The position numbers were made by a program, and so were the translations under genes. Under the pieces are notes generated by a model that worked only from the letters and a program-made list of their open reading frames with translations, was not told the DNA's origin and made no database searches. Of a stretch of 32,000 nt of DNA, positions 1,864-31,987 are shown piece after piece (the stretch's first letter is position 1; each line of letters begins with the position of its first letter). The stretch comes from Ignicoccus pacificus DSM 13166 (GTDB taxonomy: Archaea; Thermoproteota; Thermoprotei_A; Sulfolobales; Ignicoccaceae): positions 450,001 through 482,000 of the forward strand of contig CP006868.1 in NCBI GenBank assembly GCA_025340205.1, read 5' to 3'.

Positions 1864-2202
1864 TCAGACCTCTCCCAAGCTCAGCTTTATCTTATCTTTG
1901 ATCTTTCCATAGAACCACATGTCCTTAGGCCTGACCACGTGGAGGTCTATTGGATAGTCCAAGGGAAGGCCGTAGGAGAAGGCCTTATCCACTATCCTCA
2001 AGGTTAACTTCCTCACCTCCTTGTCGCCCAGATCTTTATCTATTACCACCATTATGTCAAGATCGCTCGCAGCCGTAAATTTTCCCTTCGCCACTCCTCC
2101 GAACAAGTAGACTTCAGCGTCGCCCAACTCCTCTTTAATTGCCTTTAATACCGGCTTAACGTACTTTCTCCAGTTCTTTAAGTACTGGTACTGTTCGTAC
2201 AT
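1864..2202 (-). CDS. Minimal nucleotidyltransferase (MNT), partner of the upstream HEPN protein
   Basis: GGVAKGKFTAASDLDIMVV matches the G-[SG]-x(9-10)-D-x-D pol-beta-type nucleotidyltransferase motif. The protein is 112 aa and lies 4 nt downstream of the HEPN ORF on the same strand. Confidence 0.85.
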   Translation of the reverse strand: MYEQYQYLKNWRKYVKPVLKAIKEELGDAEVYLFGGVAKGKFTAASDLDIMVVIDKDLGDKEVRKLTLRIVDKAFSYGLPLDYPIDLHVVRPKDMWFYGKIKDKIKLSLGEV

Positions 2203-2206
2203 GTAG

Positions 2207-6583: not shown

Positions 6584-6720
6584 CTAATCCCCTTCTAGGT
6601 ATAGGAAGGGTTTAAACGGGGAGGGAGTAATCTGGAGGTATAGCGCAGAAGCGAGATTAAGTGAGAGTTTATTGTATAACATATATTACAGATGCCGTAT
6701 TACATAGTTGAGGGGTTTCC

Positions 6721-6969
6721 TTGAGTGTAGTTGTGAGTTTCAGAATAGATAAGGAATTAAAAGAGAAGATGGATAAGTTTAAGTACATAAACTGGAGTGA
6801 GGTAGTTAGAAGAGCAATATACGAAACAATAAAGAAGGAAGAAGAAAAAATGAAGGAGAAGGATAGATCCAAAATCTCCTATGCTGTCCTCAAGATATCA
6901 GCGTTGAGGAGAAGGGCTGAGGGTTGGAATTCCGTGGAGGAGATAAGGAAATGGAGAGAAAGGTTGTAG
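6721..6969 (+). CDS. VapB-type antitoxin (ribbon-helix-helix-like)
   Basis: The protein is 82 aa. VVVSFRIDKELKEKMDKF...WSEVVRRAIYETI fits a strand-helix-helix layout. It overlaps the start of the PIN gene. Confidence 0.65.
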   Translation: MSVVVSFRIDKELKEKMDKFKYINWSEVVRRAIYETIKKEEEKMKEKDRSKISYAVLKISALRRRAEGWNSVEEIRKWRERL

Positions 6970-7376
6970 TCGATGCATCTGTAGTAGTAAAATGGTTCAT
7001 TGAAGAAGAATATAGCGAGCAAGCGTTGAAACTCCTCGACGCCTACAAGGAAGGTCTATTGGATTTAGTAGCTCCCTCCCTCTTACCCTATGAAGTTCTC
7101 AACGCGTTAAAGTATTCAAATGTCTTCGGTGAGGATGAGTTGAAAGAAGTAGCCATTGTGCTCGAAAGCCTCCAGATAACTACCTTTGAACTAAGGAGCG
7201 ATCACGCTCGGAGGAGTTTAGAAATTGCAATGAGGAAGGGAGTGACCGTGTATGATGCCTCCTACGTCGCTCTAGCAGAACTAGAGAACGCTGCCTTCTA
7301 TACGGCTGACGAGAAACTCCTAAGAAAGGTTAAGGATTTAGATTTCGTGAAGCACATAAGGGATTTTGATATCTAG
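6951..7376 (+). CDS. vapC: PIN-domain ribonuclease toxin VapC
   Basis: MERKVVVDASVVVKW carries the first acidic residue, and VYDASYVALAE and FYTADEKL are also present. I chose the start at the ATG at 6951, which is in frame within track ORF 6924-7376. Confidence 0.85.
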   Translation: MERKVVVDASVVVKWFIEEEYSEQALKLLDAYKEGLLDLVAPSLLPYEVLNALKYSNVFGEDELKEVAIVLESLQITTFELRSDHARRSLEIAMRKGVTVYDASYVALAELENAAFYTADEKLLRKVKDLDFVKHIRDFDI

Positions 7377-12776: not shown

Positions 12777-13385
12777 TTAGCCGGTTACGGTTACGGTAGT
12801 GGTGACGGTCACAGTCACGGTCTTGGTGACGGTCACGGTGGTGGGAGCGCAAGCTCCGGCGGTGGTGGTAGTGCTGGTGCTGGTCTGCATGACGGCGGGC
12901 TGGATGGTGATTATCTTGCTGGCGTACCAGTCGCCCATGGGGCTTCCGTCACCGTTGGCGGCGATGACAGCGATGTTGAAGGTCACCGGGACGGGCTTCT
13001 TGGGAGCGATCCACTCGAAGGTCCACTCCCTCTTTAGAGAGCCCTCCTTGGTGTGGGTGATTATGGGCTTGCCGGTCATCATGTCAGTGCTTATGAAGGT
13101 GTCCTTGGGGTCGATGACCTTTAGCTTACCAGCGCTGACGCTCACAGCGAATCCGCCGCAGGCAACTCCACCGGTGCAGTCGGGACCCTTGGTTATCTCG
13201 ATGGTTATCTTGTAAGCCTTGCCGGGGACGTACTCCTTAGGTAGGCCGATTACCTTGAACTGGGCAGGGTGCTGAGCGGCGCCCATGTGGCACTGGGTAC
13301 AGGTTAGGGTGGGAGCTCCGTTGCTCATGGCGAAGACGGTAGCGGCGAGGATCACTGCTAAGAGAACGCCCTTAAAGGCCTTCAT
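12777..13385 (-). CDS. Secreted mono-heme c-type cytochrome-like protein with a beta-sandwich domain and a (Thr-Val)n tail
   Basis: I chose the ATG at 13385, which has GAGGTGA upstream. The signal peptide is MKAFKGVLLAVILAATVFAMSNG. There is a single CxxCH motif (CTQCHMG). The C-terminus is QTSTSTTTT...TVTVTKTVTVTVTTTVTVTG, encoded by a 6-nt periodic ACN-GTN repeat at 12780-12850. Confidence 0.6.
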   Translation of the reverse strand: MKAFKGVLLAVILAATVFAMSNGAPTLTCTQCHMGAAQHPAQFKVIGLPKEYVPGKAYKITIEITKGPDCTGGVACGGFAVSVSAGKLKVIDPKDTFISTDMMTGKPIITHTKEGSLKREWTFEWIAPKKPVPVTFNIAVIAANGDGSPMGDWYASKIITIQPAVMQTSTSTTTTAGACAPTTVTVTKTVTVTVTTTVTVTG

Positions 13386-13593
13386 ACCTTTCACCTCGGG
13401 CTCTCTCCCGGTGCACAATTTATTACTTTTGGTGCAAAGGATCATAATAGCACATCCATTGGGCATTTATTGAAAGCTATTCGAACGATCAAGGTCTTTC
13501 GTCTAGGTGAAGGAATAAGCACTTAAGTTTACGGCCGTTAAAGATCGTATTAGTGTAATAACTGCTCCTCCTCCAAGAGCTGGGTTACTGAGG

Positions 13594-16881: not shown

Positions 16882-17475
16882 TTGGAGCTGCTAGGTCTCG
16901 GAGCGTGGGTCTTAACGTTCATCCTATCCTCCTTGCTAGCATCAATTGTAGAGCAGAGGTTCTCCCCCTTCGTGTTGCAAGCCTCCCTCTTGATCCTCTC
17001 AGTCTTTTCGATCTACTTATTGAAACTAAGGGTTCCCCTCCTCAAAAGTCCTCTAGGACTTCTCCTAGCCTTTATCTCTGTACCTATCATGATTACGTTC
17101 TATACAACTGTAGGAAGGCGCCTCGAAGACTACGAGCTCGAGTTCTTGCCCTCTTCTCCCCTTCCCAAGTACTTTCTGCTCCTCCTTCTAGCCCCCATGG
17201 CAGAGGAGGCGAGCTTCAGAGGTCTGCTGGAATGGAGCTTGAGCTTTCCTATTTCTATAATTTTGCCGGCGCTGGCATTCGGCCTAGTTCACATAATGCC
17301 CTATGGCAAGGCTCCTCGAAGGTCTAAGGCAGTCGCCCTTTCGATAATAACCGTCTTGGGATTCCTCTTCTCCCTTCTCTCGTGGTATTATGGCTTGGTC
17401 TCCGCGATGCTCTCTCATTCTATGACAAATGCCGTAAGCTTGATTGAGGAGAGGAGAACAAGAAAAAGCACTTAG
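16882..17475 (+). CDS. CPBP (CAAX/Abi-type) intramembrane metalloprotease
   Basis: It has multiple transmembrane segments with the three CPBP motifs in order: EEASFRG, FGLVH and HSMTN. Confidence 0.8.
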   Translation: MELLGLGAWVLTFILSSLLASIVEQRFSPFVLQASLLILSVFSIYLLKLRVPLLKSPLGLLLAFISVPIMITFYTTVGRRLEDYELEFLPSSPLPKYFLLLLLAPMAEEASFRGLLEWSLSFPISIILPALAFGLVHIMPYGKAPRRSKAVALSIITVLGFLFSLLSWYYGLVSAMLSHSMTNAVSLIEERRTRKST

Positions 17476-18698
17476 AGCTCCACGTACCTCCTCAAGTTCC
17501 TCCTATAAGCAAAGACTCCCAAGGCGAAGAGGACTGTGGATGCTAAGAGGAGCTTGACAAAAGGAACCAGTTCCTCGGCTCCCCTTCCTAGCACCAGCAC
17601 CCCTCTGATGATGTCTATTCCCCACGTGGGCGGGAAGACTTCAGCTAACGTCTTGAAGTAGCTCGGCAGCATCTCCTTCGGAATCCATATACCAGCCGTG
17701 AAGGTGAAGAGGAGGCCTAGCATCACTCCCAAGTTGGACGCTCCCTTAGCGGTCTTACTAACCAGCGAGAGGAGGAACCCCATGCTTATTGTTGATATTC
17801 CGACCAGCACTAAGGAAACCAAGGCTATCCAGTCATAAGGGTTGAAGGGGTTCCAGAGGACTCTGGCTCCCATCGCCAAGCCGCTGAGGACGACTGCAAC
17901 GGCGGAGATGCCAAGTATGGTCAAGCCTCCCAGGAGCTTCCCCAGCAAGAGCTCCCCTTCCGAAACTGGGGAGGTCAGTATCCTATCCAACGTCTTCTTC
18001 TCCTTTTCGATAACAACGGCTGTAGCTCCGATGATGAGTCCCGTGTAGAGGAAGCTCATCCCTATTGCTCCCCAGACGAGCCATCCCAATATGCTGGCCC
18101 TTTGAGCCAAGGTGGTGGGCGTCATCCTCTTCATGGTAACGTTTAGCGGCTCTATCAGACCTTTCATGAACTTCATCACGAACTCATTGCTTCCTATGTA
18201 CTTTATCACATATTCCAACTTTCTCTTCGCGATTTCCTTTGAGAAGTAGTAGAGGAATGACCTAACGCTCTCCTCGTGAAGCTGTACCGAGAGGGAAGAT
18301 CCTCCGCTTACGTAGACCGTTAGCCTAGCCGTCCCGGAAGTCAAGTTACGGTAAAATCCCTTAGGGATGACTATCCCCGCTCCTATCTTCGCCTTCTTCA
18401 AGTCATTAACTAACTTTTCCATACTATTGTACCTAATTACTTTAAATAGTTTAGTTCCATTGTACTTCGCTTTTTCCATAGCTTTTATGATCAACGTACC
18501 GTTTGGGTCATGGCTGAGAACACCCACCCTCACCGTAACCGGCTTCCCGCTGGTGGAGGGGAGGAAGACGTTGGCCGTTATGAACAATAACATTATGGGC
18601 CAAACTATTACCCAGAAGACGTCGCTCTTGTCTCTGGCAAACGTCCATAAGCTGTACTTTACGAATGCCCTTATCCTCCTAGCCTTCATGCACCTCAC
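17472..18698 (-). CDS. ABC-2 type exporter permease
   Basis: One N-terminal transmembrane segment, a large extracytoplasmic loop, then 5 C-terminal transmembrane segments. It overlaps the upstream ATPase gene by about 20 nt. Confidence 0.8.
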   Translation of the reverse strand: MRCMKARRIRAFVKYSLWTFARDKSDVFWVIVWPIMLLFITANVFLPSTSGKPVTVRVGVLSHDPNGTLIIKAMEKAKYNGTKLFKVIRYNSMEKLVNDLKKAKIGAGIVIPKGFYRNLTSGTARLTVYVSGGSSLSVQLHEESVRSFLYYFSKEIAKRKLEYVIKYIGSNEFVMKFMKGLIEPLNVTMKRMTPTTLAQRASILGWLVWGAIGMSFLYTGLIIGATAVVIEKEKKTLDRILTSPVSEGELLLGKLLGGLTILGISAVAVVLSGLAMGARVLWNPFNPYDWIALVSLVLVGISTISMGFLLSLVSKTAKGASNLGVMLGLLFTFTAGIWIPKEMLPSYFKTLAEVFPPTWGIDIIRGVLVLGRGAEELVPFVKLLLASTVLFALGVFAYRRNLRRYVEL

Positions 18699-19578
18699 CC
18701 ACGAGCTTTATGAAGACATCTTCCAAGGAGGGTTTCTTTACTTCCAAAGACTTCAACTTGATTCCTCTAGAGTACAGTTCGTTTACGACAGTTGGAACCC
18801 TCTCGTCGGGGCTTTCTACGAGAAACCTTACCCTCTTACCTTTTGCTATGCATCCCATCTCTTCACATAGCTTTCTAGTATCGATTTCCTCCTCCACTTC
18901 AACTTCAATAGCTCCACGAGGAAGAAGTCTTCTCAGCTCCTCCGGGCTTCCCTCCGCCACTACTTTCCCTTTATAGATTATATAGACCCTATCCGAGTAC
19001 CTCTCCGCCTCCTCCACGTAGTGAGTGGCGAAGAGCACTCCTTTTCCTTCCTCCTTGTACTCGTTCACGAGTCTCCAGAAGTCCCTCCTCACAGAGGGGT
19101 CTAAGGCAACCGTGGGCTCGTCCAATATGAGGAGTCTTGGATCGTGGACCATTGCTATTGTGAGGGTGAGGGCCTTCTTCATCCCTCCGGAGTACTTCTC
19201 CACGGGGTCCTTCAAAGGAAGCGAAATGCCTAGCTCTTCCAGCGTTTCCTTAACTACCCTTAATGCTTTTGAACAGGGTATGGAATAGAGCTCGGAGAAG
19301 AAGCAGACGTTCTGCCTTCCGCTCAGCTCCTCCCTAAGGCCTCCCTCTTGAGGGACGTAACCGAAGAGCTCCCTCGCCTCCCTAGGATCCTTTCCCTCTA
19401 TTTCCACCCTTCCCTTTGTAGGTAAGTAGATCCCTGTTATCACCTTCAGCAACGTGCTCTTGCCGGAACCGTTGGGACCCAAGAGGGATACGGCCTCCCC
19501 CTCTCCTACTTTAAGGCTTATTCCCTTGAGGACCTCGATCCCTGACAAGCTCTTCCAAAGGTTATCTACGACGAGCAA
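18679..19578 (-). CDS. ABC transporter ATP-binding protein
   Basis: Walker A is GPNGSGKST, the signature is YSGGMKK and Walker B is LLILDEPT. The start is TTG. Confidence 0.9.
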   Translation of the reverse strand: MLVVDNLWKSLSGIEVLKGISLKVGEGEAVSLLGPNGSGKSTLLKVITGIYLPTKGRVEIEGKDPREARELFGYVPQEGGLREELSGRQNVCFFSELYSIPCSKALRVVKETLEELGISLPLKDPVEKYSGGMKKALTLTIAMVHDPRLLILDEPTVALDPSVRRDFWRLVNEYKEEGKGVLFATHYVEEAERYSDRVYIIYKGKVVAEGSPEELRRLLPRGAIEVEVEEEIDTRKLCEEMGCIAKGKRVRFLVESPDERVPTVVNELYSRGIKLKSLEVKKPSLEDVFIKLVGEVHEG

Positions 19579-19795: not shown

Positions 19796-21382
19796 ATGAA
19801 AATGAGGAAGGGCACACTACTAACCTACGTCGGCCTCGTCACCTTCTTGCTCGGAACAAGCATAATACTGACGTTCGTAATACCGGCTCAGCTGTACTTC
19901 CTCGCCCCGGGAGCTGAGGACGCTTGGAAGTACGTTAAGGTAAAGGGTATTCTCATTTCCAATCATACGGAAGTTTTTATGAAATATAACATAACTAAGT
20001 ACGAAGGCTCCAAGACTTGCATTCAGTGTCACAAGAAGGAGACCAAGGACTTCGTGCACTCGATCCATTACAAGATGTGGAACTACGTAAATGACATAGT
20101 AGGTAAGCCTAGGGTGAAGGTTGGAAGCAGAGTGCTCTACAACGACTTCTGTGGTGCCATATTCTGGAATATGACCAAGCCAATAAATTTCATTGGTAAA
20201 ACTGTTCTCAAGAATGTTCCGAATGACATGGAAAAATTAAAGGGAAGGGTCGTCTCGACCGGCTGTTCCGCTTGCCACGGCTCCAGCTTAGGCAAGGTTC
20301 CAAATATAGAGCCGAACGGCAAGGACCTCGAAAACGTCGACTGCTTGGTCTGCCATTCTCTCAAATACAGAGGAGGACCCCTTGGAGTAGCGAAGGGCTA
20401 CAGGAAGCTCGTCAAGACTGAGGACGGCTGGAGATACGTCCCTGACATCTCGATAAAGGACGCCGCGTTGATATTGGCTAAGCCCGGGAAGGACTCTTGC
20501 TTGGCCTGCCACGCCTACTCAGGAGGAGGTCCCGGCTTCAAGAGGCCCAACTTAACCCCCGATCTGATGGGGAACGTGTCGGAGCACTTCGACGTCCACA
20601 TGGCTAGGGGTCTTCACTGCGTGGACTGCCATCCTTTCGAGGACCACAAGGTGGCCACCAAGGCCGTGGATACCTTTGCCAGGGAAGGAAAGGCGAAGAG
20701 CTGCGTCGATTGTCATCCTCATAGGCACAGAGCTCCCATCGTCGGATTCTTTATCGAGAGATTCCATAAAAGGGTGAGCTGCCAAGCTTGCCACATCCCC
20801 TACATAGCTCATGGTAAGTACCCAACTGACGTTAAGAGGGATTGGAGGAAAGCGGAGTTCAACTACGAGCTGAAGAGGTGGGAACCTGAGATAGAGCTGA
20901 AGAGAGACGTCGTTCCGACCTACGCTTGGTGGGACGGACGGGATAGGATCGTCTACCCCGACAAGGTTACTGGAAACGAGATAATCTTTGCCAAGCCAGT
21001 CAAAGGAAAGAATGCCAAGATCTATCCCTTTAAGGTCCACATATCATATGTTCCAATCGATAAGGAAAAAGGCGTACCAATACCCATCAAGGTTGGGATA
21101 GTTTTCAGCACGGGAAACGTCACCCTAGCGATAAAGAAAGGAGCTGAGATAGCGGGCTTGAATTACACCGGTAACTTCATCAAGGTAGTTAGATACATGA
21201 GCGTGGATCACGGAGTGGTTCCAGCTAAGGAGGCCCTCAAGTGCACGGACTGCCACAGTCCTTGGACTAGGATGCCTCTGAAAGAGCTGGGCTATGGTCC
21301 TCTTCCAGAAATCGCTTATTACGGCGCTCCTCTGCTCGTCCTAGCTGGCTTGGCGCTAACTCTGTTCTCAATATTGTCCTAA
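19796..21382 (+). CDS. Membrane-anchored octaheme c-type cytochrome
   Basis: Eight CxxCH motifs: CIQCH, CSACH, CLVCH, CLACH, CVDCH, CVDCH, CQACH and CTDCH. There is an N-terminal transmembrane/signal-anchor segment (LLTYVGLVTFLLGTSIILTFVI) and a C-terminal transmembrane segment (APLLVLAGLALTLFSIL). Confidence 0.85.
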   Translation: MKMRKGTLLTYVGLVTFLLGTSIILTFVIPAQLYFLAPGAEDAWKYVKVKGILISNHTEVFMKYNITKYEGSKTCIQCHKKETKDFVHSIHYKMWNYVNDIVGKPRVKVGSRVLYNDFCGAIFWNMTKPINFIGKTVLKNVPNDMEKLKGRVVSTGCSACHGSSLGKVPNIEPNGKDLENVDCLVCHSLKYRGGPLGVAKGYRKLVKTEDGWRYVPDISIKDAALILAKPGKDSCLACHAYSGGGPGFKRPNLTPDLMGNVSEHFDVHMARGLHCVDCHPFEDHKVATKAVDTFAREGKAKSCVDCHPHRHRAPIVGFFIERFHKRVSCQACHIPYIAHGKYPTDVKRDWRKAEFNYELKRWEPEIELKRDVVPTYAWWDGRDRIVYPDKVTGNEIIFAKPVKGKNAKIYPFKVHISYVPIDKEKGVPIPIKVGIVFSTGNVTLAIKKGAEIAGLNYTGNFIKVVRYMSVDHGVVPAKEALKCTDCHSPWTRMPLKELGYGPLPEIAYYGAPLLVLAGLALTLFSILS

Positions 21383-21385
21383 TTT

Positions 21386-21862
21386 TTATGAACAACTTTG
21401 TACCATTCCCATGTACCAGTTCAAGTTTCCTGCCTTCGCTCCCATTGTAACGAACACGTTTAGCGTGACGTTGCTTCCAGCCTTCGGTACCTGACAGTAG
21501 TAGGGGAACCTTACATGATAGACGGTGCTTCCGTTTAAGATTACCGCTATAGTCGGGGCGCTCTCTATTACCGTTCCGCTAACGGTCCTTGGCTGTCTGA
21601 CCGTGTAAACGTAGTTCACTACTGGCCTCGTGTAGTGACACTGGGTGCAGAAGGGGTCTCCGATCGGGCGAGCGCTTGGAGTATTCTGAGTAGTAACAGC
21701 AGTACAATTGCCAGGATAGCAATAGGGATGAGCAGTTGGAGGATTAACCATAGGAGTCCCACGAAAGGGAGCTGAGCCATAGCTCGGACAAGGCCTTCCC
21801 CACCAAGCTAGGGAGAGCGAGGCCAAGGCTAAGAGGAGTACGAGGGTAAGGGACCTCCTCAC
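21386..21862 (-). CDS. Secreted protein with a single CTQCH heme-c motif
   Basis: The signal peptide is MRRSLTLVLLLALASLSLAWW, and the CxxCH motif is in DPFCTQCHY. It converges on the octaheme gene with a 3-nt gap. Confidence 0.55.
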   Translation of the reverse strand: MRRSLTLVLLLALASLSLAWWGRPCPSYGSAPFRGTPMVNPPTAHPYCYPGNCTAVTTQNTPSARPIGDPFCTQCHYTRPVVNYVYTVRQPRTVSGTVIESAPTIAVILNGSTVYHVRFPYYCQVPKAGSNVTLNVFVTMGAKAGNLNWYMGMVQSCS

Positions 21863-24056: not shown

Positions 24057-24135
24057 GCGGCGGTCGTCTAGCCTGGACTAGGACGCCGGCCTGCCACGCC
24101 GGAGATCCCGGGTTCAAATCCCGGCCGCCGCACCA
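24057..24135 (+). tRNA. tRNA-Gly (anticodon GCC), with CCA encoded
   Basis: I folded the cloverleaf by hand. Acceptor stem is GCGGCGG/CCGCCGC and D stem is GUCU/GGAC. Anticodon stem is CCGGC/GCCGG with loop CUGCCAC. Variable loop is AGAUC and T arm is CCGGG-UUCAAAU-CCCGG. Discriminator is A, followed by CCA. Confidence 0.92.
24075..24135 (+). repeat. attL: a 61-bp direct repeat that is the 3' three-quarters of the functional tRNA-Gly
   Basis: ggactaggacgccggcctgccacgccggagatcccgggttcaaatcccggccgccgcacca is identical to 31927-31987. Confidence 0.9.
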
Positions 24136-24271
24136 ATTACCTTCTTCTAGCCTCTCCCATGTCGAGCATCTCGAGGAGGGGCACGCTCTAGCGGTTGACT
24201 GTTCGAAAACAAGAAGCTCTCGAAGTTCTTCCCTCGAACCCTCCATCAGTTGCACGGATCATATCAACCCC

Positions 24272-25555
24272 ATGCAACTGAAGTTAGTAAGCGAACTTAA
24301 TGCTTGGGTCAGAGTCAAGCTAATCCGTTCAGCTCTCGAACACTTTACAGTGGAAGAACTCTCAAAGGCCCTGGGCAAGAGCAAGAGCACTATCTACCGC
24401 TACTCCAAAGGAGATGTAATCCCAAGCGAGGAAGTCGTAGCGAAGGTCTTGGCGTTGCTCTCTGTTGACGTAGCCTTCGCTTCAGTGGGCAAGGAAGTCC
24501 TCAAGGCCTACGGCTTGCTCGACCACGAAGGCAAGCCGAGGCTCGTACCCATGCTAGCTATCCTGAGCGTTGCCTTGGGAGATCCTCTCCTCAGGAAGTT
24601 AGTCCTCGAGTGGGTTTCAAGAGCTTTAGGCAACGAGGTGACTGAGCTCAAGCCCGAACCGGCTTTGCTCATGAAGTGGGAAGACGTCTTCGAGGCCTAC
24701 CTCAAAGAGCGTAAGGGCATAAGTGAGGAGCAAATCGCTTACTACCGCTCGCTCTTTGAAAGGTTCTTCGAGGGCAAGGCGTTAACCGAAGAGTTCGTGG
24801 AAGAAGCCTCGAAGTTCCCAGGGTGGGCGAGGGTCGTCTTTAGGCACTACTTGAACTGGTTGTTACTCGAGCGGAGGGTTGACAGCGAGTTCGTAAGCTG
24901 GGCCTTGAAGAAGATTCCTACGAGGGGCTACAAGGTAAGCGTGAAGGTCCATGAGATAAGCTTTGAGGAGGTCACGAAGACCCTGACTGTGCTTAAACAA
25001 GAGAACGAAGAGATCTATTGGCTCTATCGCCTCCTCCTCGAGAGCGGGCTCAGGCTAGCCCACGCCTTGGAGTTAATCGCTTCATGGAATCCCACCGAGA
25101 AGGTCTTCGTGGAACCCTTGGGCAAGGTTGAGGAGAGGTGCAAGTGCTTTGAAACGCACTGCCGCTGCTGGCTGGGGATCAAGAGGGGCAAGAAGTCCGC
25201 GCTCTGGGCTTTCATGAGCAAGGAGACCTTTGAGGTGCTGAACGAGATAGCTCCGACCAAGCTCTCGAGACACTGCGTGAGCAAGAAGGCGAAGGCTCTG
25301 GAAATCCTTGAGCCCTCGAAGCTTCGCAAGTTCTCCGAGCAATACATGAAGGAGGCGTTCGCCAAGAAGGCACAAGAGCTGGGCGAGCACCCTGAGGTCA
25401 TAATGCAGTTCGTGCAGGGGAGGACCGGCGAGCTGAAGGTCTCTCATTTGTACTACGACAACTTACTGAGGAAGACCGATTTCGTTTACCCGAGCTGGTT
25501 GGAGTTCTTGGGAGATGTGCGCTTTGGTCCTTTGGAGAGAGGACTCGTGGGATAG
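24272..25555 (+). CDS. int: Archaeal-type tyrosine recombinase / integrase
   Basis: It lies 136 nt from the att repeat and has an N-terminal HTH (SKSTIYRYSKGD). The C-terminal catalytic-like series is ESGLRLAHAL (Arg I), SKLRKFSEQY (xxR box), QGRTGE (Arg in place of His/Trp, as in archaeal integrases) and SHLYY (Tyr nucleophile). Confidence 0.75.
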   Translation: MQLKLVSELNAWVRVKLIRSALEHFTVEELSKALGKSKSTIYRYSKGDVIPSEEVVAKVLALLSVDVAFASVGKEVLKAYGLLDHEGKPRLVPMLAILSVALGDPLLRKLVLEWVSRALGNEVTELKPEPALLMKWEDVFEAYLKERKGISEEQIAYYRSLFERFFEGKALTEEFVEEASKFPGWARVVFRHYLNWLLLERRVDSEFVSWALKKIPTRGYKVSVKVHEISFEEVTKTLTVLKQENEEIYWLYRLLLESGLRLAHALELIASWNPTEKVFVEPLGKVEERCKCFETHCRCWLGIKRGKKSALWAFMSKETFEVLNEIAPTKLSRHCVSKKAKALEILEPSKLRKFSEQYMKEAFAKKAQELGEHPEVIMQFVQGRTGELKVSHLYYDNLLRKTDFVYPSWLEFLGDVRFGPLERGLVG

Positions 25556-25566
25556 GTGTTGTCTTG

Positions 25567-25606
25567 GGACCAGGGGCCCCCGCCTCTCGGACCAGGGGCC
25601 CCCGCC
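25567..25606. repeat. Two tandem copies of GGACCAGGGGCCCCCGCC with a 22-nt period, just downstream of int
   Basis: Identical 18-mers lie at 25567-25584 and 25589-25606. Each contains the GGGGCCCC palindrome. Confidence 0.8.
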
Positions 25607-25660
25607 CGTTCCATGATAACATAGTATACTGGGGTTATTAAGTTTTTGTCAACTACAGTG

Positions 25661-26653
25661 TTATTGAAGTATGCTATCACAATTAAGATATATCTTATTG
25701 CTCCCTGGCTTTCTACACAACTTGGGATCACTGGAATACGTAAGTAACTTACAATTGAACTCCAACTTATCAAACCACAGCTTCACCGACTCCTTAATCT
25801 CCTGAGACACCCATCTACCTATTAAGATCCTCCTAAGCGAATACCCAACCAAATCGGCTAACTGTATCAACGGGTTGAGTTGAGATTCGTGTAACTGAAA
25901 GGTAATTATTTTAGAGTAATCAACCCTATTGGATGTCGTAGTTATTTCATCCTCCCCAAAGGACACTAAGAGAGCAGTTATCTTTGCATAGAGACTGGAT
26001 GGAAGGACGTGAGCGTCTTTATCTATCCACAGAATAACTTCTGAATTATCATGTGCTGTAACGAATCCCACAATGCGTTTTAAAAGCTCTGATAAGACAT
26101 AGCCTTTAGCGATTGGTATTATGTTAAATTCAAGTAGCTCCGGTATCTTAACTATGATGTCTAGCTCGTCACTCCTTCTAGAATGTAGGTAATCTTGAAG
26201 AGCATCAATGAGGAGGTATTGCGTTCTGATCTTTAAACATTCCGTGTTTGTTGCTACGAAAGCGTATGTCCATTTAGTGTCAGCGCTTAGTCTGATGTGC
26301 TCCCTGAGTACATCTAACACCTTAGAGAAGACTTGTTCAATAACGTCATGGGGCACATTAAGATCTCTAAGTGCATTGAACAGGAAACGTCCCTTTACCT
26401 CAAAAGGGATGTCGCTTCTCTTCTTGTCTCTCATACGTTTTAGTACATCCTCGACAGATTTGTTCAGCTGTAGTTCTTGAAAAGCTTGAGAGAGAAGTTC
26501 CTTCCAGTACTCTTTGGAAACCAGCTTGTATGTGTCATTGTAGATGTCAAGCGGTACTATAAGCGCGCCCATAGCGAATATTGATTCATGACTGGTTATT
26601 GGTATATTCTCTTCTACATTGCCGGTTTCGTCAATACCCGCGGCGAATAACAT
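25661..26653 (-). CDS. DUF3800-like protein, carried as low-GC cargo within the element
   Basis: The N-terminus MLFAAGIDETGN matches the h-D-E-[ST]-G hallmark at the start of DUF3800 proteins. GGTGGGG sits 6 nt upstream of the ATG. The region is about 38-40% GC by my line counts, against roughly 50-60% in flanking lines. Confidence 0.5.
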   Translation of the reverse strand: MLFAAGIDETGNVEENIPITSHESIFAMGALIVPLDIYNDTYKLVSKEYWKELLSQAFQELQLNKSVEDVLKRMRDKKRSDIPFEVKGRFLFNALRDLNVPHDVIEQVFSKVLDVLREHIRLSADTKWTYAFVATNTECLKIRTQYLLIDALQDYLHSRRSDELDIIVKIPELLEFNIIPIAKGYVLSELLKRIVGFVTAHDNSEVILWIDKDAHVLPSSLYAKITALLVSFGEDEITTTSNRVDYSKIITFQLHESQLNPLIQLADLVGYSLRRILIGRWVSQEIKESVKLWFDKLEFNCKLLTYSSDPKLCRKPGSNKIYLNCDSILQ

Positions 26654-26699
26654 ATATTCCCCACCAATTGTCCTCTTGTCTACCCGTGTTTAACTTTTG

Positions 26700-27002
26700 T
26701 TAGAAGACTTTGTTACTTAGTGAATCCGACCTCCACGAGGCTCTACGGGTCTTCGCCCTCCTCACCTCCCTCAGCACCTCGTGGAGTTTCTTGGCGACTT
26801 CTTGATCACACTCGAAGAGTAAGGCCATTGCAAGCGTTATTTCCAAGTTGTTGAGTCTGTAGCGAGATCTCAAGATAGCGAGCAAGCCTTCGAACTTCGA
26901 GTGGGCGTTGATGCGGGAGGCGGAAAGGGGAAGGCCCAGGTAGTGGAGGGCTTGTTGCTTGAAGTTCCCGAGACAAGTGTGTACTTGTGCTGGGCTGTCC
27001 AC
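26700..27002 (-). CDS. Hypothetical protein of the element
   Basis: A 100-aa ORF upstream of, and co-oriented with, the DUF3800-like gene. No motif recognised, and several overlapping alternative-frame ORFs make the call uncertain. Confidence 0.35.
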   Translation of the reverse strand: MDSPAQVHTCLGNFKQQALHYLGLPLSASRINAHSKFEGLLAILRSRYRLNNLEITLAMALLFECDQEVAKKLHEVLREVRRAKTRRASWRSDSLSNKVF

Positions 27003-27121
27003 CTTCGCTCACCGTTGCTCCGGAGGGTACCTCGTGTGCACCCGAAAGGAGGGCTCGCGGCGGAGCGCTTGTTCGTGTGGGGAAAGGCCCGGTGGTAGGG
27101 CAAGGCCGAAATCGTTCGGAT

Positions 27122-27136
27122 CCCCCCCCCCCCCCC
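27122..27136. repeat. C15 homopolymer (G15 on the minus strand)
   Basis: I counted 15 consecutive C residues directly, in non-coding DNA of the element. Confidence 0.95.
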
Positions 27137-27185
27137 GTTTAAGGACTTAAGGGGGTTTGTGTTTCACCAATTGATGGTCCCAGCT

Positions 27186-27399
27186 GGCCCAGAGGCCCAG
27201 CGCTTCTGGGGGATACCCGGGGCGAGTGAGAAAAACTGCGAGGGGGCCTCGGGGAAACCACTGGGCCTCTGGGCCCTCGTTTACCATCACATATTTACTT
27301 GGTGATTATGGTTTCACCAATGATCTGAAATCCAAATCACTAAGGTCTCCGCCGTCAAGGGCCCAGAAGGCCCAGCGGGGCCCAGTTGGGAGCTGGGCC
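27186..27399. repeat. GGCCCAG iteron-like array with 5 direct and 3 inverted copies, including a perfect 15-bp inverted repeat
   Basis: GGCCCAG occurs at 27186, 27194, 27360, 27369 and 27379. CTGGGCC occurs at 27261, 27269 and 27393. ggcccagaggcccag (27186-27200) is the exact reverse complement of 27261-27275, with a 60-nt spacer. Confidence 0.85.
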
Positions 27400-27531
27400 C
27401 TGAACGGCAGCGGTGTTACGGTATCGAACTTAAAGGTACATCTCTAATCACTCCCCTCTCGATTTACGGAAGGGAGAGGGAACGACTAGCGAGTGGTCCT
27501 GTTGGGCCCTCAGGAGGCTGAGAAGTTTGTT

Positions 27532-30453
27532 TCAGTTTAGTAATTCAGCGAGTTCTTCCGCCCCAACTTCCTCTTCCTTTAGCTTCAGCGAAATTATGAA
27601 GAGCGAGGTTGGTTCCAGATCGAGTTTGACTTTGTAACCTTTTTTAATGCTTCCGCAAAGCTTCACCTTACTCCTCTGCTCCCTCCTCTTCTTCAGTGCT
27701 CCCAACTCCTCCAACCACCTCGTAACGCTCAGCAACGCCACATTCTCTCCGTATCTCTTCCTTATCCAGTTGTTCACCTCCTCGAAGAAGTTCTTGTTTG
27801 CGAATAAGCAAACGTCGTTACCCTCCACGAACATTACCGCTCCGTTCTCTTCAAACGCAACGCAAGAGGGCGGATAGCCTTGAATTCCAGTAGGCCAATC
27901 GAGGGCCTCCTTGTCGTAAACGTAGAGCTCTAACTCCTTGATCTCCTTGTCCAACACCCTCCTTATGAACGAGTAGAACGCTTGTCTGTAGTCGAAGCTC
28001 TCCCTCCCGACGGCGCTCTCCGTCAGCCCCTCGAAATCTGGCTTGGGGAACGGCTCTAGTCCATACTCCTCATAGAGTTCCCTCCAAGCCTGGTAGCCTA
28101 GCTCAAGAAGTTCCAGTACCTTCCTCCTCCTCGGGAGCCCCTTGAGTTCCCTCTTCCTCTCTTCAAAGAGCTTTGCGAACTTCTCGAGGACCTTCAGGCC
28201 AACAGTCTTTACCGCCTTGATCCTCTCAAGGTCCATCGAGTCCGGGGTGAAACCCCTCGCCTTCTCAACATCTATCCCGTATTCAGCGCTCAAGTAGAGC
28301 CTCACGAACTTATCCTCCGAGTCCAGCCCTATCCTCAACCCCTCGTTGGCTGTCATCACTACGCCTCTCAAGTTAAGGTAGACTCCTTGGACCGTCGGTC
28401 CGCTTTTCTCTGCCATTACCACGTTGGTGGCTGCTCTGTGGAGCTCTTTCAAAGCCCTCTCGTCCATGTTGTGGGCCTCATCAAGAACCAGCAAGAGCTT
28501 GGCTTGGGCTAAAGCCTTCTGAGTCTCGTACTCGGTCCTTGGTAGAGCTGCGTCGGGCTCGACGTTGTTGAGTAAGGCCAAGAACTCCGCTATGGTGCTC
28601 TTACCTCCTCCCCTCTTACCCTCGATCACCAAGTGAGGGAGATAGCTCAGCTCCTTGCGGATTTCGTAAGCTAAGGCCAGAGCGGGGTAGAAGCTCAGAG
28701 CGAAGGCGGGAACCTCGTGGTCCTTGTAGCCCTCAACGAACCTCCTAACGACCTCAAGCCCCAGCTCGATATCTCCTTCGAGCTCAGGCTCCCACTTGTG
28801 AACGAACCTCCACCTCGGCCTGTAACCAGTCTCCCTCGCCAGCAGTAGTTTCCCTTCAACGAGCCAAGGTCCTACTGCGTACCAAGTCTCGACCTCCTCC
28901 TCAGCCATTTCCTCTATCAAACGTTTGAAGGCTTCCTTGTCGTCCAGGAAACTGAGCTGTTTGAGGTTGTTCGCTACGTCCTCTAGTGTCCCAACGAGTT
29001 CCAGCTCCTTGCCTTTGACCTCAAGTCTGACCGAGTAGTAGAGGCCCAAGTTTAGCGGGAGACCCTCGGGGAGTATCTTGATCAGTTTGACCTCCTTGGG
29101 GATAGCGCTTGTTATCAACCTAGCCTCGCCTTGGTTGTTGATGACGTAAACTCCTTCCCTCCCAGTCGTTACACTGCGCACAGCTTTGCCTTGTCTCCTC
29201 CTGAGCCAAGCGACCCCGGAGCCCCTCGCAATTCCCAAGATCCTCTTTATCGTATTGAGGACCTCTCCGACTTGCTTAGCGGCCTCTTCATCATCCAGTC
29301 CGTCCTCCTTCTTTATTTTGAGTAATTCCTCCCTCAGGCACTTGAGCCCGCAAAGGTTTACCCCTTGCCTCTTTTCATAGTGGTAGTCCACTTGGTAGAG
29401 TCTCTCGCTCTTCTCCTCATCGTCCTCAGCCAAGAGTTCGATTACCCTTCTGGCGCTCTCCTTCTCTATCCCGGCTTTTATCATGACTCCGAGCAAGTCC
29501 TTGACTATCTCGTGTCTGTGGCCAGGCTTGTAGAATGGCTTGACAATTTGCACCAACTCGAGAATCCTCGTGTTATCGAGACGTCTTAAAGGCTGGTGGC
29601 GACCCTTGACCGCGATGCCGTTCTTCGACCCCCTAATCGTATCGAGCGGAGGTAAGACCTCCTCGATGACGCTGGTGCTCACCGGTAGCGCTCCGTCCTT
29701 GATCCAGAACGTTGGTTTGGGCCACTCGTACTTCCAGTTGATCGTTCCGATGAGCCTCATGACCCTCGCCGGGTCCTTGATCCTCTCGTCGGCCGGGAGG
29801 CCGAACTCCTTCCCGAGCGCGATGAAGCGCTCCTGGTACTTCCTCCAATCGTTGGGCTTCACCGGATTGAGCAACGTAACGTAGAGGTGGAACCCTCCTC
29901 CACTGAAGGCGAAGTTGAAGTCTATGTCATTCTCCTCGAGGAACGCTAGAAACTCCGCTAGCTTCTCTAGGCTCTCTTCTTCAAACTTACCCTTGTAGTC
30001 TAGGTCGAGCACTAGGACGTTGAACTCTTTGACGTCCTCATTCGAGTGCCTCTTGTTGTAGGAGACCCAAGCTCTGAGCCTCTCATTGAGCTCGAAGTCA
30101 TTATCTTTCAGCTCCTCGAGCTTCACTATCCCAAGTGCCACGTAGGTCTCAGCGTTACCCAAGGCCTCAAGGAAGTCTCTATCCTCCAAGAGCTTTAGCA
30201 GATCACCCTTCCGCTCGAAGGCTAACGTTAGCGAGCCCCTCTCCTCCTTCTGCCAAATGATAACAGGCTTGTCCTCGTTCCCCGTTATCAGCCTCAAGTG
30301 TTCAACGATCTCGCTGGTCCTAACCTTGGGTTCTTCCCTAGTAGCCCGCTCGAGGGCTTCCTTGAGCCCCTTTGTCCAAACGTTAACTTTTTCAGGACCA
30401 TTGGACCCTTCGTTATCGGGTAGCTGCGAGGGGGAGGTGACTACGGCCGTCAT
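27532..30453 (-). CDS. Replication protein: an N-terminal AEP prim-pol domain fused to a C-terminal P-loop (SF3/D5-like) helicase
   Basis: AEP motifs: I is VLVLDLDYK, II is SGGGFHLYV and III is DPARVMRLIGTINWK. Walker A is GKRGGGKST and Walker B is LLVLDEAHN. I chose the ATG at 30453 (MTAVVTSPS...), which overlaps the upstream ORF stop as ATGA, rather than the track start at 30567. Confidence 0.85.
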   Translation of the reverse strand: MTAVVTSPSQLPDNEGSNGPEKVNVWTKGLKEALERATREEPKVRTSEIVEHLRLITGNEDKPVIIWQKEERGSLTLAFERKGDLLKLLEDRDFLEALGNAETYVALGIVKLEELKDNDFELNERLRAWVSYNKRHSNEDVKEFNVLVLDLDYKGKFEEESLEKLAEFLAFLEENDIDFNFAFSGGGFHLYVTLLNPVKPNDWRKYQERFIALGKEFGLPADERIKDPARVMRLIGTINWKYEWPKPTFWIKDGALPVSTSVIEEVLPPLDTIRGSKNGIAVKGRHQPLRRLDNTRILELVQIVKPFYKPGHRHEIVKDLLGVMIKAGIEKESARRVIELLAEDDEEKSERLYQVDYHYEKRQGVNLCGLKCLREELLKIKKEDGLDDEEAAKQVGEVLNTIKRILGIARGSGVAWLRRRQGKAVRSVTTGREGVYVINNQGEARLITSAIPKEVKLIKILPEGLPLNLGLYYSVRLEVKGKELELVGTLEDVANNLKQLSFLDDKEAFKRLIEEMAEEEVETWYAVGPWLVEGKLLLARETGYRPRWRFVHKWEPELEGDIELGLEVVRRFVEGYKDHEVPAFALSFYPALALAYEIRKELSYLPHLVIEGKRGGGKSTIAEFLALLNNVEPDAALPRTEYETQKALAQAKLLLVLDEAHNMDERALKELHRAATNVVMAEKSGPTVQGVYLNLRGVVMTANEGLRIGLDSEDKFVRLYLSAEYGIDVEKARGFTPDSMDLERIKAVKTVGLKVLEKFAKLFEERKRELKGLPRRRKVLELLELGYQAWRELYEEYGLEPFPKPDFEGLTESAVGRESFDYRQAFYSFIRRVLDKEIKELELYVYDKEALDWPTGIQGYPPSCVAFEENGAVMFVEGNDVCLFANKNFFEEVNNWIRKRYGENVALLSVTRWLEELGALKKRREQRSKVKLCGSIKKGYKVKLDLEPTSLFIISLKLKEEEVGAEELAELLN

Positions 30454-30656
30454 TGGTCCACCACCTCCTCTCCCTCCTTCAAGCTTCCGCACATCGCCTC
30501 GTACAACAGGAGAGCCCTCGTCACGACCTCGTTGTCCGCATGGCCGTGGAAGACGTAACCTTCGCACATCTCCCTCGCCATCTCCTCTGCTTCCTTCCTG
30601 AGCTCGGAACCAAGGTCCTTGAGGACTTCCTCGATACGTTGCTCGATCTCCTTCAT
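30450..30656 (-). CDS. Hypothetical small protein (68 aa) of the element operon
   Basis: It has 4-nt overlaps with both neighbouring ORFs, and is acidic and helical. Confidence 0.5.
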   Translation of the reverse strand: MKEIEQRIEEVLKDLGSELRKEAEEMAREMCEGYVFHGHADNEVVTRALLLYEAMCGSLKEGEEVVDQ

Positions 30657-30979
30657 TGCTTACACCTCCTCACAGCTCTCTTTAAGGCCTCCTTGGTGAG
30701 CGGAGTTTGAGGAAGCTCCTCGCCTTTGCAGATCCTTTCTACGAGCCTCTCGATCTCTAGCTCGTTCACCACCACTTCGGGCTCATAGCCCAAGCGCTTC
30801 AACTCCTTGTCGACGAGCCTCTCGAGAGTCTCCCTGAGGCTTTGGTCGTAAACCGTTGCGAGGAAGCAGAGCTTAGCGTGGAGCCCCTCGCTCGCTGGCA
30901 GAGTCTTAGGCTTTCCATTTATTACCTGGTACTTTGCCACAGTGGTGGCCGCGAGGTCGCGGAGCGCGGCTTTTCTCAC
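30653..30979 (-). CDS. Small protein, possibly a ribbon-helix-helix DNA-binding protein
   Basis: KTLPASEGLHAKLCFLATVYDQSLRETLERLVDKEL resembles a strand-helix-helix layout. It overlaps both neighbours by 4 nt. Confidence 0.4.
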   Translation of the reverse strand: MRKAALRDLAATTVAKYQVINGKPKTLPASEGLHAKLCFLATVYDQSLRETLERLVDKELKRLGYEPEVVVNELEIERLVERICKGEELPQTPLTKEALKRAVRRCKQ

Positions 30980-31398
30980 TGCGCCTCACCCCCAACCCTC
31001 TTGATTATCTCTTCTGCCTCCTTCAGCATCTTACACTTACTGAGCTTCTCGAGTAGGGCCTTGAGCTCGTCCTCGTGCTTCCTCATTATCTCCAGCAAGG
31101 CCTTAGTTATCGCCACGTTCGGTAGTCTGTGCTCTTTCCTCAGCTCGATTACCGCCTCTGCGAAGTCTCTCGCCACCTTGAGCTTGGTGAATTCCTTCTC
31201 TTCAAAAAAGCTCGAGAACTTCTCGCAGCTTTCTTGTTTTCCGGTCTTCACAGTTCCACCCGTATCTACCTGGGGTACCAGTGGTTGCTCATGGTGAGTC
31301 GAATCTTGCATCTCATTTCCCCTCACCCAACGTAGGGTACCTAGTCCGTTGCGCACGCTCCCTCCCGTATCCCCCAAGGGTACCAACCGCTCTGCCAT
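30976..31398 (-). CDS. Hypothetical protein, with its C-terminal half paralogous to ORF 31434-31787
   Basis: I preferred the ATG at 31398, which has GGTGAGGGAG 5 nt upstream. The track start (GTG at 31440) and the ATG at 31311 are alternatives. The 5' part lies in a tandem duplication. Confidence 0.5.
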   Translation of the reverse strand: MAERLVPLGDTGGSVRNGLGTLRWVRGNEMQDSTHHEQPLVPQVDTGGTVKTGKQESCEKFSSFFEEKEFTKLKVARDFAEAVIELRKEHRLPNVAITKALLEIMRKHEDELKALLEKLSKCKMLKEAEEIIKRVGGEAQ

Positions 31399-31430
31399 GG
31401 TTACTCCCTCACCCTTACCGAGGGTACCAT
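31240..31430. repeat. Imperfect tandem duplication (units of about 65-85 nt) with GGGTACC cores
   Basis: Unit 31259-31341 (cccgtatctacctggggtacca...cctcacccaacgtagggtacc) aligns with unit 31364-31428 (cccgtatcccccaagggtacca...cctcacccttaccgagggtacc). Each unit carries a GGTGAGGG SD-like box followed by an ATG on the minus strand. Confidence 0.7.
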
Positions 31431-31433
31431 TGC

Positions 31434-31787
31434 TCACCACTTCATCCTCGCCAAGCGACTATCCCACTTGTACACTTCTTTCGCCCTCAGCTTCTTGCAG
31501 AATCTGATGTCCTCGATGGTCTTCCTGAACTCCTCCTCGTGCCTCTTCAGGACGTAGTAAGCGGCCATAGTTACTGTGTGGTTCGTCGTGTTCAGCTCCT
31601 TCCTTAGCCTCAGCACCAGCAAGGCGAACCAGCTTGAAACGGTGAGCCTCGACTTGATTTCGAGCAAGTGGTCCTCCTCTTCGATGTCCTTGCACCTAGG
31701 GTGCTTCTGCCACTCGTACTCCTCCACAAGCATCCCCGCCCAGAGCTGGGGTACCAGTGCGCTAGCGGTGAAACGGAGTAGTCGCAT
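31434..31787 (-). CDS. Hypothetical protein, first gene of the element's leftward operon and paralog of ORF 30976-31398
   Basis: An ungapped hand alignment of RLRKELNTTNHTVTMAAYYVLKRHEEEFRKTIEDIRFCKKLRAKEVYK with ELRKEHRLPNVAITKALLEIMRKHEDELKALLEKLSKCKMLKEAEEIIK gives about one third identity. Confidence 0.5.
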   Translation of the reverse strand: MRLLRFTASALVPQLWAGMLVEEYEWQKHPRCKDIEEEDHLLEIKSRLTVSSWFALLVLRLRKELNTTNHTVTMAAYYVLKRHEEEFRKTIEDIRFCKKLRAKEVYKWDSRLARMKW

Positions 31788-31926
31788 TTTGATGGCGAGT
31801 ACTGGGACGAAAGGTCTGCCTAGCAGAGAAATTGGTTAGACCTTCGAAGGAAGCGGGCATAACGGTGAAACGGAAAGCTTCAGCTGGGAGCTCGCTTGAG
31901 TAAGAGGAGGAAAAGGAACTCGAGGG

Positions 31927-31987
31927 GGACTAGGACGCCGGCCTGCCACGCCGGAGATCCCGGGTTCAAATCCCGGCCGCCGCACCA
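31927..31987 (+). repeat. attR: the displaced 3' fragment of tRNA-Gly (61 nt)
   Basis: It is identical to 24075-24135. The upstream sequence (aaaggaactcgaggg) cannot form the acceptor or D arms, so this is not a second tRNA gene. Confidence 0.9.

Follow-up and report, generated by a model that had tools for sequence, protein, structure and literature searches.

The locus

The stretch of DNA considered here, which we call the window, comprises 32,000 nucleotides of the genome of Ignicoccus pacificus DSM 13166 (contig CP006868.1, positions 450,001 to 482,000). It carries an octaheme cytochrome c gene of the OTR family (octaheme tetrathionate reductases), IPA_02710 (19796-21382, plus strand), an open reading frame (ORF) of 528 codons that begins at an ATG. 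This gene converges on IPA_02715 (21386-21862, minus strand), which begins at a GTG and encodes a small, presumably secreted protein of 158 residues with a CTQCH motif. Both ORFs match the corresponding NCBI gene calls with 100% identity and coverage. A spacer of 3 nt separates the two stop codons (TAA-TTT-TTA), and an oligo-T run, TAATTTTTA, follows the stop codon of IPA_02710.

The product of IPA_02710 contains exactly eight CxxCH motifs, beginning at residues 75, 157, 183, 235, 275, 303, 329 and 483, all encoded on the plus strand. The first, CIQCH (20018-20032), is invariant across the family. The second, CSACH (residues 157-161; 20264-20278), would bind the presumed catalytic heme and aligns with C74-H78 of the structure 1SP3, the OTR of Shewanella oneidensis. 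Motif scanning and the family alignment place the motifs of hemes 3 to 7 at 20342-20356 (CLVCH), 20498-20512 (CLACH), 20618-20632 (CVDCH), 20702-20716 (CVDCH again) and 20780-20794 (CQACH). The eighth, CTDCH (21242-21256, motif scan), is located inside a beta-rich C-terminal domain that Pfam recognises as PF11783 (Cytochrome_cB; residues 364-488; 20885-21259, plus strand), in the neighbourhood of which the structural model described below has beta strands at residues 344-422 and 461-469. Sixteen of the 17 cysteines of the protein belong to these motifs, the lone extra one being Cys119. At least 600 OTR homologs were found, and the 120 best were analysed; the eight motifs are invariant among these 120, which excludes a chance origin.

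Both ends of the protein are hydrophobic. Kyte-Doolittle windows exceed 1.6 at residues 6-37 and 506-528 and nowhere else, and an AlphaFold2 model built with 37 homologs as input (mean pLDDT 90.5, pTM 0.88) forms terminal helices at residues 4-36 (as 4-27 and 29-36) and 503-527. The N-terminal segment (residues 6-37; 19811-19906, plus strand) is possibly a signal anchor or an uncleaved signal peptide. The C-terminal segment is a predicted transmembrane helix (residues 503-528; 21302-21379, plus strand), right after which the protein ends (LTLFSILS, then the stop codon; 21302-21382). Nearly all homologs have a basic tail (RKK, RRR) at this place, as expected for the cytoplasmic side, and IPA_02710 is without it. 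The original prediction, made from the letters of the sequence, had announced an ORF of 528 residues with eight CxxCH motifs and a hydrophobic helix at each end, and this description agrees with motif count, hydropathy and model alike. The sequence supports the reading of IPA_02710 as a c-type cytochrome with eight hemes that is exported and bears a hydrophobic helix at either terminus.

Assignment to the OTR family

Several types of comparison lead to the same family. The NCBIfam model TIGR04315 ('tetrathionate reductase family octaheme c-type cytochrome') matches IPA_02710 at 1.8e-62 over model positions 17-440 of 440, and PF11783 matches at 1.6e-19, above the Pfam cut-off. Searches of the PDB, with the single sequence at E<=0.01 and with a profile at E<=0.1, returned 1SP3 as the sole match (6e-30 for the single sequence, 4.5e-51 for the profile of the clade described below). 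When the AlphaFold2 model was submitted to Foldseek, 1SP3 was again the sole significant match (E 2.3e-23, TM score 0.71 normalised on the target, 24% identity); the second best, MccA, had an E value of 0.06 and a TM score of 0.17 and was not significant.

Other multiheme families were considered and set aside. The HAO, IhOCC, NrfA, ONR and MccA families gave no significant PDB sequence, profile or fold match. Models of the NrfH/NapC/CymA type (TIGR03153, 33 bits against a cut-off of 134) and of the MtrA/DmsE decahemes (TIGR03508, 27.5 bits against a cut-off of 192) matched short internal stretches of the protein. Since 1SP3 is the sole significant match, the HAO/IhOCC, NrfA/ONR, MccA, NrfH and MtrA types are excluded as families for IPA_02710, in agreement with the published opinion that OTR stands structurally apart from other multiheme enzymes (PMC9250108). 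The original prediction had named, as an outcome that would speak against it, a clear placement in a well-characterised octaheme family; this is essentially what we find, OTR alone being significant by hidden Markov model, by sequence and by fold. As judged from sequence and model together, IPA_02710 is a protein of OTR-family fold, with its eight motifs in the register of the family.

An active site retained without its lysine ligand

The catalytic site of OTR has three hallmarks: the second heme motif, a lysine that ligates this heme instead of a histidine, and a cysteine close by (bioRxiv 10.1101/2023.04.20.537704). In the enzyme, catalysis takes place at heme 2 (PMC9250108; bioRxiv 10.1101/2023.04.20.537704). 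For comparison of residues the 120 homologs were aligned with the sequence of 1SP3 as rebuilt from its HMMER alignment, which covers residues 13-70 and 73-430. The rebuilt sequence lacks residues 1-12 and 71-72, and His57 of IPA_02710 falls in the part that is lacking. Seven histidines outside the motifs are kept in the family at 97-100%, namely H57, H91, H268, H284, H324, H415 and H472, enough to provide seven hemes with bis-histidine ligation. The eight motifs, these seven distal histidines, Cys119 and Lys249 are all conserved in this same range (97-100%), and all except H57 align to residues of 1SP3. Cys119 (20150-20152, plus strand), the sole cysteine outside the motifs, corresponds to the active-site Cys64 of OTR and is 100% conserved; Lys249 (20540-20542, plus strand) corresponds to Lys153 of 1SP3 and is invariant in the whole family.

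The remaining hallmark is missing. In an alignment without gaps, for which the NDFC motif served as anchor and sequences reading GK[KR] as bridge, Ser111 and Arg112 of IPA_02710 (20126-20131, plus strand) occupy the columns of OTR Lys56, the axial ligand of heme 2, and of Lys57. The corresponding region of 1SP3 reads G-K56-K57-x5-N-F-C64. Non-thermophile homologs have G-K-[LMI] with equal spacing, six basal thermophile sequences have G-K-[KR], and IPA_02710 has G-S111-R112 at an identical distance from NDFC. The substitution is shared by a whole clade: the ligand column is glycine or serine in its 61 members, and Lys56 is invariant in 58 other homologs. A neighbour-joining tree shows a single loss of the lysine, which it places at the base of a clade of 59 taxa. 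The following residue (lysine in 32 clade members, arginine in 28, alanine in one) flips between lysine and arginine at least nine times on this tree, and thus behaves as a charge-conserving position, not as a metal ligand.

When differential conservation was scanned for a replacement ligand, no histidine, methionine or lysine proved peculiar to the clade without Lys56; H88 and K139, though enriched in it, occur in lysine-containing sequences too. Heme 2 of IPA_02710 probably stays a five-coordinate catalytic heme, given that its motif persists together with Cys119 and Lys249 and that an eighth distal histidine is lacking. With Lys56 lost to Ser111, the ligand of this heme is probably the histidine within its own CxxCH.

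This clade-wide loss of the lysine goes beyond the literature that could be searched. It concerns the very residue that made OTR famous for its 'novel heme ligation', and it parallels the debate about lysine and histidine in NrfA. As a whole clade of thermophiles lacks the lysine and keeps the rest of the active site, nature has in effect run an experiment on what the proximal ligand does.

Membrane-anchored relatives from hydrothermal systems

IPA_02710 is 63% identical to Igni_1130 of Ignicoccus hospitalis; it is also 63% identical to a protein of I. islandicus and 54% identical to Hbut_0194 of Hyperthermus butylicus (P0010), with coverage of 91-96%. A survey of archaeal cytochromes c placed Igni_1130 and Hbut_0194 in its 'Cluster 05 OTR' (Kletzin et al., 2015; PMC4429474). 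The supplementary table of this survey lists Igni_1130 with 526 residues, eight CxxCH motifs and a TMHMM topology of i5-27o499-521i, and Hbut_0194 with 539 residues, eight motifs and i7-29o513-535i, both being negative with SignalP. C-terminal membrane anchors are found in many archaeal cytochrome c candidates of the same survey (PMC4429474).

Among the 120 best homologs a C-terminal helix, usually followed by basic residues, occurs in 58 of the 61 members of the lysine-less clade and in five of the 57 remaining OTR homologs. Eight CxxCH motifs are present in 59 of these 61, and many OTR homologs outside the clade carry ten motifs instead of the C-terminal helix. An anchor at both ends, which had been held to be an atypical topology, is therefore the rule in this group, and it is published for Igni_1130 and Hbut_0194 (PMC4429474). 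Nor does the claimed rarity of multiheme cytochromes in Crenarchaeota hold: I. hospitalis has four, three of them purified, and such proteins are established in Desulfurococcales (PMC4429474).

The clade mixes Desulfurococcales and other Thermoproteota with the bacterial Thermaceae (Oceanithermus) and Desulfurobacterium, all from hydrothermal systems, and this mixture of archaea and bacteria suggests that the OTR-like proteins spread laterally among vent thermophiles. IPA_02710 is, in summary, a member from a new species of a published group, the membrane-anchored OTR-like octaheme cytochromes of Desulfurococcales. The octaheme protein is neither an orphan nor a protein of strange topology, and adds a further member to a catalogued archaeal group.

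The small CTQCH protein

The neighbour had been described as a convergent gene for a protein of 158 residues, 3 nt away, with a signal sequence and a single CTQCH, and each of these elements was recovered. IPA_02715 has an N-terminal hydrophobic segment, one CTQCH (residues 72-76; 21635-21649, minus strand) and seven cysteines. Upstream of its GTG start there is a GGTGA ribosome-binding site and, about 30 nt away, a TATA-like TTTTAAAT. Its close relatives are three metagenomic homologs, and a profile search of 1.84 billion representatives returned ten proteins at E<=0.001. No relatives were found in Pfam (E<=1), in NCBIfam or, by sequence and profile, in the PDB. The motif is kept in all 13 family sequences that cover the region, and shuffling the sequence of IPA_02715 creates a CxxCH in 0.5% of cases (probability 0.005). 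In an alignment of 14 sequences G96, V98, Y115, H116, C123, W149 and C157 are invariant; of these, His116 (21515-21517, minus strand) is a candidate sixth heme ligand. One member of the family (P0133) has a tandem form with two domains, the second carrying CSSCH.

The AlphaFold2 model of IPA_02715 begins with the signal helix, continues with a disordered proline-rich linker (residues 20-66) and the CTQCH, and ends in a five-stranded barrel (residues 84-154, pLDDT above 90). The motif region is modelled at low confidence. Foldseek gave the barrel weak, generic matches to OB folds (the N-domain of RuvA, Rpb7) at E values of about 2e-3. The heme chaperone CcmE was considered and rejected: there is no PF03100 match, the H/CxxxY signature is absent (the protein reads HVRFPY and ends in QSCS), and CcmE is outside the top 50 fold matches.

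From these features IPA_02715 could plausibly be a monoheme cytochrome that is secreted, its heme ligated by His76 and His116 and its C123 joined to C157 in a disulfide. The competing view, somewhat less probable to our mind but to be taken seriously, is that the CxxCH does not bind heme: IPA_02715 would then be a secreted OB-fold protein that uses its cysteines for disulfides or a metal, with a motif that resembles a heme site by coincidence. There are as many as seven cysteines to serve such ends, an OB barrel is no known cytochrome c fold, Pfam, NCBIfam and the PDB offer no cytochrome family match, and the surroundings of the motif are poorly modelled. Against this view, the full C-x-x-C-H persists in every homolog that covers it as well as in the duplicated domain, and H116, a second histidine that does not vary in the family, could serve as sixth ligand. 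The protein is moreover predicted to be exported in a lineage that makes c-type cytochromes, and beta-rich monoheme candidates with reeler domains have been proposed for Ignicoccus (PMC4429474).

These reeler candidates, Igni_0579 and Igni_1052 (placed in cluster 38 by Kletzin et al., 2015), resemble IPA_02715 in being small, exported and beta-rich with a single CxxCH. They differ in architecture, their motif coming right after the signal peptide and before a reeler beta-sandwich, whereas that of IPA_02715 follows a long proline-rich linker and accompanies an OB barrel; no sequence similarity between them was detected. An exported CxxCH protein with an OB fold may represent a new cytochrome c architecture, and this orphan family is beyond the literature that could be searched.

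A likely counterpart of Igni_0579 and Igni_1052 (PMC4429474) is found elsewhere in the window, as a third candidate c-type cytochrome. This ORF (12777-13466, minus strand, with 13385 as its probable true start) encodes a signal peptide and, right behind it, TCTQCH, with a CTQCH identical to that of IPA_02715; a Reeler domain (PF02014, 27.4 bits, above cut-off) and a C-terminal tail rich in threonine and valine come next.

Two observations concern the surroundings of the small gene. A 128-residue ABM-domain protein (PF03992, the IsdG-type heme-degrading or heme-binding fold) is encoded on the same strand 61 nt upstream of IPA_02715 (21924-22310, minus strand); on the contigs of its homologs the IPA_02715-family gene is at the contig end or has a different upstream gene. 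On one metagenomic contig (L003) a paralog of the family (1796-2263, plus strand) is located about 1 kb from the family member P0126, a local duplication.

Genomic context and maturation genes

Upstream of IPA_02710, and divergent from it, is an ABC-2 exporter (17472-19578); a CAAX protease and a PadR regulator are encoded farther out. Downstream come the small CTQCH gene, the ABM-domain protein, an SBF-family transporter and a SIMPL protein. The 32-kb window contains no ccm gene and no redox partner. The ABC ATPase of the exporter (18679-19578) fell into an apparent cluster with ATPases of related loci, which reflects general ABC similarity: with its 299 residues it is a DrrA-type ATPase accompanied by an ABC-2 permease, not CcmAB.

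For synteny, 25 loci of the OTR clade were assembled (H. butylicus and 24 loci from metagenome-assembled genomes, MAGs), their ORFs were clustered with those of the window, and 20 immediate neighbours were scanned against Pfam; the search for related loci by clade alignment did not return Ignicoccus or Hyperthermus genomes. Neighbours in these loci are mostly unrelated housekeeping genes (a tRNA synthetase domain, Mrp/ParA, MFS, radical SAM, UvrA, proA/proB), and no recurrent cytochrome b, NrfD, hydrogenase or molybdoenzyme is found beside the OTR-clade genes of the 25 loci. The sole relevant recurrent neighbours are ccm genes, in five archaeal MAG loci (L011, L012, L014, L019 and L028, from Desulfurococcales, Acidilobaceae and Thermodiscus). 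They encode a CcmC-like protein (341 residues) and an unusually long CcmF-like protein (about 950 residues), both with PF01578, together with a CcdA/DsbD-like membrane protein fused to thioredoxin. Such neighbours fit a c-type cytochrome and are uninformative on its substrate. In one Thermoproteota MAG (L007) a protoglobin gene (6544-7125, minus strand), encoded opposite to the OTR-clade gene, lies upstream of it; the other loci did not show this.

Covalent heme attachment in either protein would depend on a cytochrome c maturation system of the same genome. CcmB, C, E and F are present in I. hospitalis, which also makes multiheme cytochromes (PMC4429474 for the cytochromes). The gene IPA_02710 stands alone, without a conserved redox partner. 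Bacterial OTR genes, by comparison, have been reported to adjoin a cytochrome b gene or a hydrogenase, and the OTR of Shewanella receives its electrons from the soluble cytochrome STC. In IPA_02710 the anchor may substitute for these partners of the bacterial enzymes.

Proposed role and rival explanations

Taken together, these observations lead us to see IPA_02710, with a probability of about 0.75, as a Sec-exported, membrane-tethered octaheme cytochrome of the OTR family whose heme 2 would reduce a small sulfur or nitrogen compound, encoded by a stand-alone gene to which the small neighbour is unrelated. Electrons would enter from a donor in the membrane and run along the wire of bis-histidine hemes to heme 2, which, having no conserved distal histidine, would reduce its substrate on the side of the membrane that faces away from the cytoplasm. 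The enzyme would be held on the membrane by its C-terminal helix and perhaps by an uncleaved N-terminal one as well, so that a built-in anchor would replace the separate cytochrome b or the soluble shuttles of bacterial OTRs. As for evolution, a subclade of hydrothermal-vent thermophiles, archaea and bacteria alike, would have gained the C-terminal anchor, and most of its members, Ignicoccus included, would later have lost Lys56, once. The candidate substrates are a guess: tetrathionate or S-S bonds of the polysulfide type, nitrite, or hydroxylamine. The Shewanella enzyme acts on tetrathionate, nitrite and hydroxylamine, and it is only for this enzyme that activities are known.

A number of points weigh against this proposal. 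The similarity to the reference enzyme is limited, IPA_02710 being only 24% identical to 1SP3, and its TIGR04315 score of 211.8 bits is under the curated NCBI cut-off of 375. Lys56, the defining ligand of heme 2 in OTR, is replaced by Ser111, and without it the chemistry of heme 2 may differ from that of OTR or may have been lost. When a CcmF sequence from one of the five ccm loci (L028) was used as query and the top 8000 word-sharing candidates were scored, no Ignicoccus entry was among the best 120 matches, although this is no sign that such genes are absent. To our knowledge, Ignicoccus is known only as a respirer of hydrogen and elemental sulfur, which makes the physiological substrate a guess. 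Finally, the ortholog Igni_1130 is itself only predicted, and stands outside the three cytochromes purified from I. hospitalis (PMC4429474).

A more ambitious view of the locus, which we regard as tentative and rather doubtful, comprises two readings. In one, the OTR clade of vent thermophiles, whose cluster representatives number at least 59 and include Ignicoccus, Hyperthermus, Oceanithermus and Desulfurobacterium, would form a subfamily with a function of its own; in the other, IPA_02715 would found an undescribed class of monoheme c-type cytochromes with an OB fold. If the first were true, the lysine-ligated heme would have been swapped for one with histidine or other ligation, in a self-tethered reductase with a substrate range unlike that of the Shewanella OTR; if the second were true, the monoheme class would be restricted to hyperthermophilic archaea of vents. 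Neither lead alters the view of Ignicoccus energy metabolism before activity, localisation (inner or outer membrane) and expression have been measured.

It is unlikely, in our estimate, that IPA_02710 is a pure conduit of electrons, with heme 2 turned into an ordinary electron-transfer heme after the loss of Lys56 and the protein acting as a membrane-anchored wire between complexes or compartments; in Ignicoccus such a wire would bridge the intermembrane space. The Ser/Gly occupancy of the Lys56 column throughout the clade, the predicted membrane anchor at one or both ends, and the lack of conserved partners or substrate-related neighbours would all suit this role. There is a precedent as well, in MmcA, the conduit of Methanosarcina derived from OTR (bioRxiv 10.1101/2023.04.20.537704). 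MmcA, however, gave up the lysine and the cysteine along with the heme-2 motif (bioRxiv 10.1101/2023.04.20.537704), whereas the family of IPA_02710 conserves the heme-2 motif, Cys119 and Lys249 at 100%. Furthermore, seven conserved distal histidines for eight hemes leave heme 2 without a sixth ligand, and the clade has gained no specific histidine, methionine or lysine that would close the site.

Least of all do we believe in a functional redox pair, in which the secreted CTQCH protein would serve the octaheme cytochrome as donor, acceptor or shuttle and the two genes would be kept together in the genome: the distance of 3 nt, the predicted export of both products with a conserved CxxCH, and the example of Shewanella OTR, which is fed by the small soluble STC, speak for it, but the genes are convergent and hence separately transcribed, none of the 25 other OTR-clade loci holds a homolog of IPA_02715, the convergent neighbour of the H. 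butylicus ortholog (175 residues) is unrelated and devoid of CxxCH, the homologs of the small protein reside in three other contexts without an OTR gene nearby (L001, L003 and L004/L005, beside a peptidase M24 gene, a GHMP kinase gene or glycosyltransferase genes), and the small family has about ten representatives against at least 600 OTR homologs. The pairing had been proposed from adjacency, an adjacency that recurs neither in the OTR-clade loci nor in the three contexts of the small family; of what was expected of the small neighbour, a conserved motif of the heme type stands, and a role as partner of the octaheme protein does not. On comparison of these loci, the adjacency of IPA_02710 and IPA_02715 is probably coincidental.

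Other features of the window

An integrated element of about 7.85 kb occupies 24057-31987, at a tRNA-Gly(GCC) gene (24057-24135). Its attL and attR sites are a perfect direct repeat of 61 nt, taken from the 3' part of the tRNA (24075-24135 and 31927-31987). The element encodes an archaeal phage-type integrase with a helix-turn-helix (24272-25555), a DUF3800 protein (25661-26653), a protein of 1011 residues with DUF5906 (27532-30567) and small ORFs that belong to no family. GC content rises to 0.55 at 28-32 kb of the window. Genes resembling toxin-antitoxin systems are also present: a nucleotidyltransferase (112 residues) and a HEPN protein (153 residues) form an adjacent pair (1864-2668, minus strand), and a PIN-domain protein (150 residues) is encoded separately (6924-7376, plus strand).

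Comparison with known systems

One comparison is with IhOCC (Igni_0955), HAO, NrfA, ONR and MccA, multiheme enzymes that have one catalytic heme with an open site, and of which IhOCC comes from the genus Ignicoccus itself. IPA_02710 has no significant sequence match to any of them, and fold similarity is negligible (TM score 0.17 for MccA).

MmcA of Methanosarcina acetivorans, the heptaheme conduit derived from OTR, is like IPA_02710 an archaeal relative of OTR without the lysine ligand. MmcA is also without the heme-2 motif and the active-site cysteine, and IPA_02710 keeps both.

With the Shewanella oneidensis OTR (SO_4144, 1SP3; Mowat et al., 2004; Atkinson et al., 2007) IPA_02710 shares the fold, the eight motifs, PF11783, Cys64 (Cys119), Lys153 (Lys249) and the seven distal histidines, of which H57 falls in the part of 1SP3 that was not recovered. 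The Shewanella protein is soluble and periplasmic, whereas IPA_02710 is predicted to be membrane-anchored; at 24% identity, IPA_02710 also has about 30 additional residues inserted after Cys119 and ahead of heme 2, and Ser111 in place of Lys56, the heme 2 ligand.

The nearest systems are Igni_1130 and Hbut_0194. I. pacificus was outside the survey of Kletzin et al. (2015), and IPA_02710 lacks the basic tail of these two proteins. It shares with them eight CxxCH motifs at equivalent positions and a predicted in-out-in topology, and with Igni_1130 the GSR that stands at the position of the lysine ligand.

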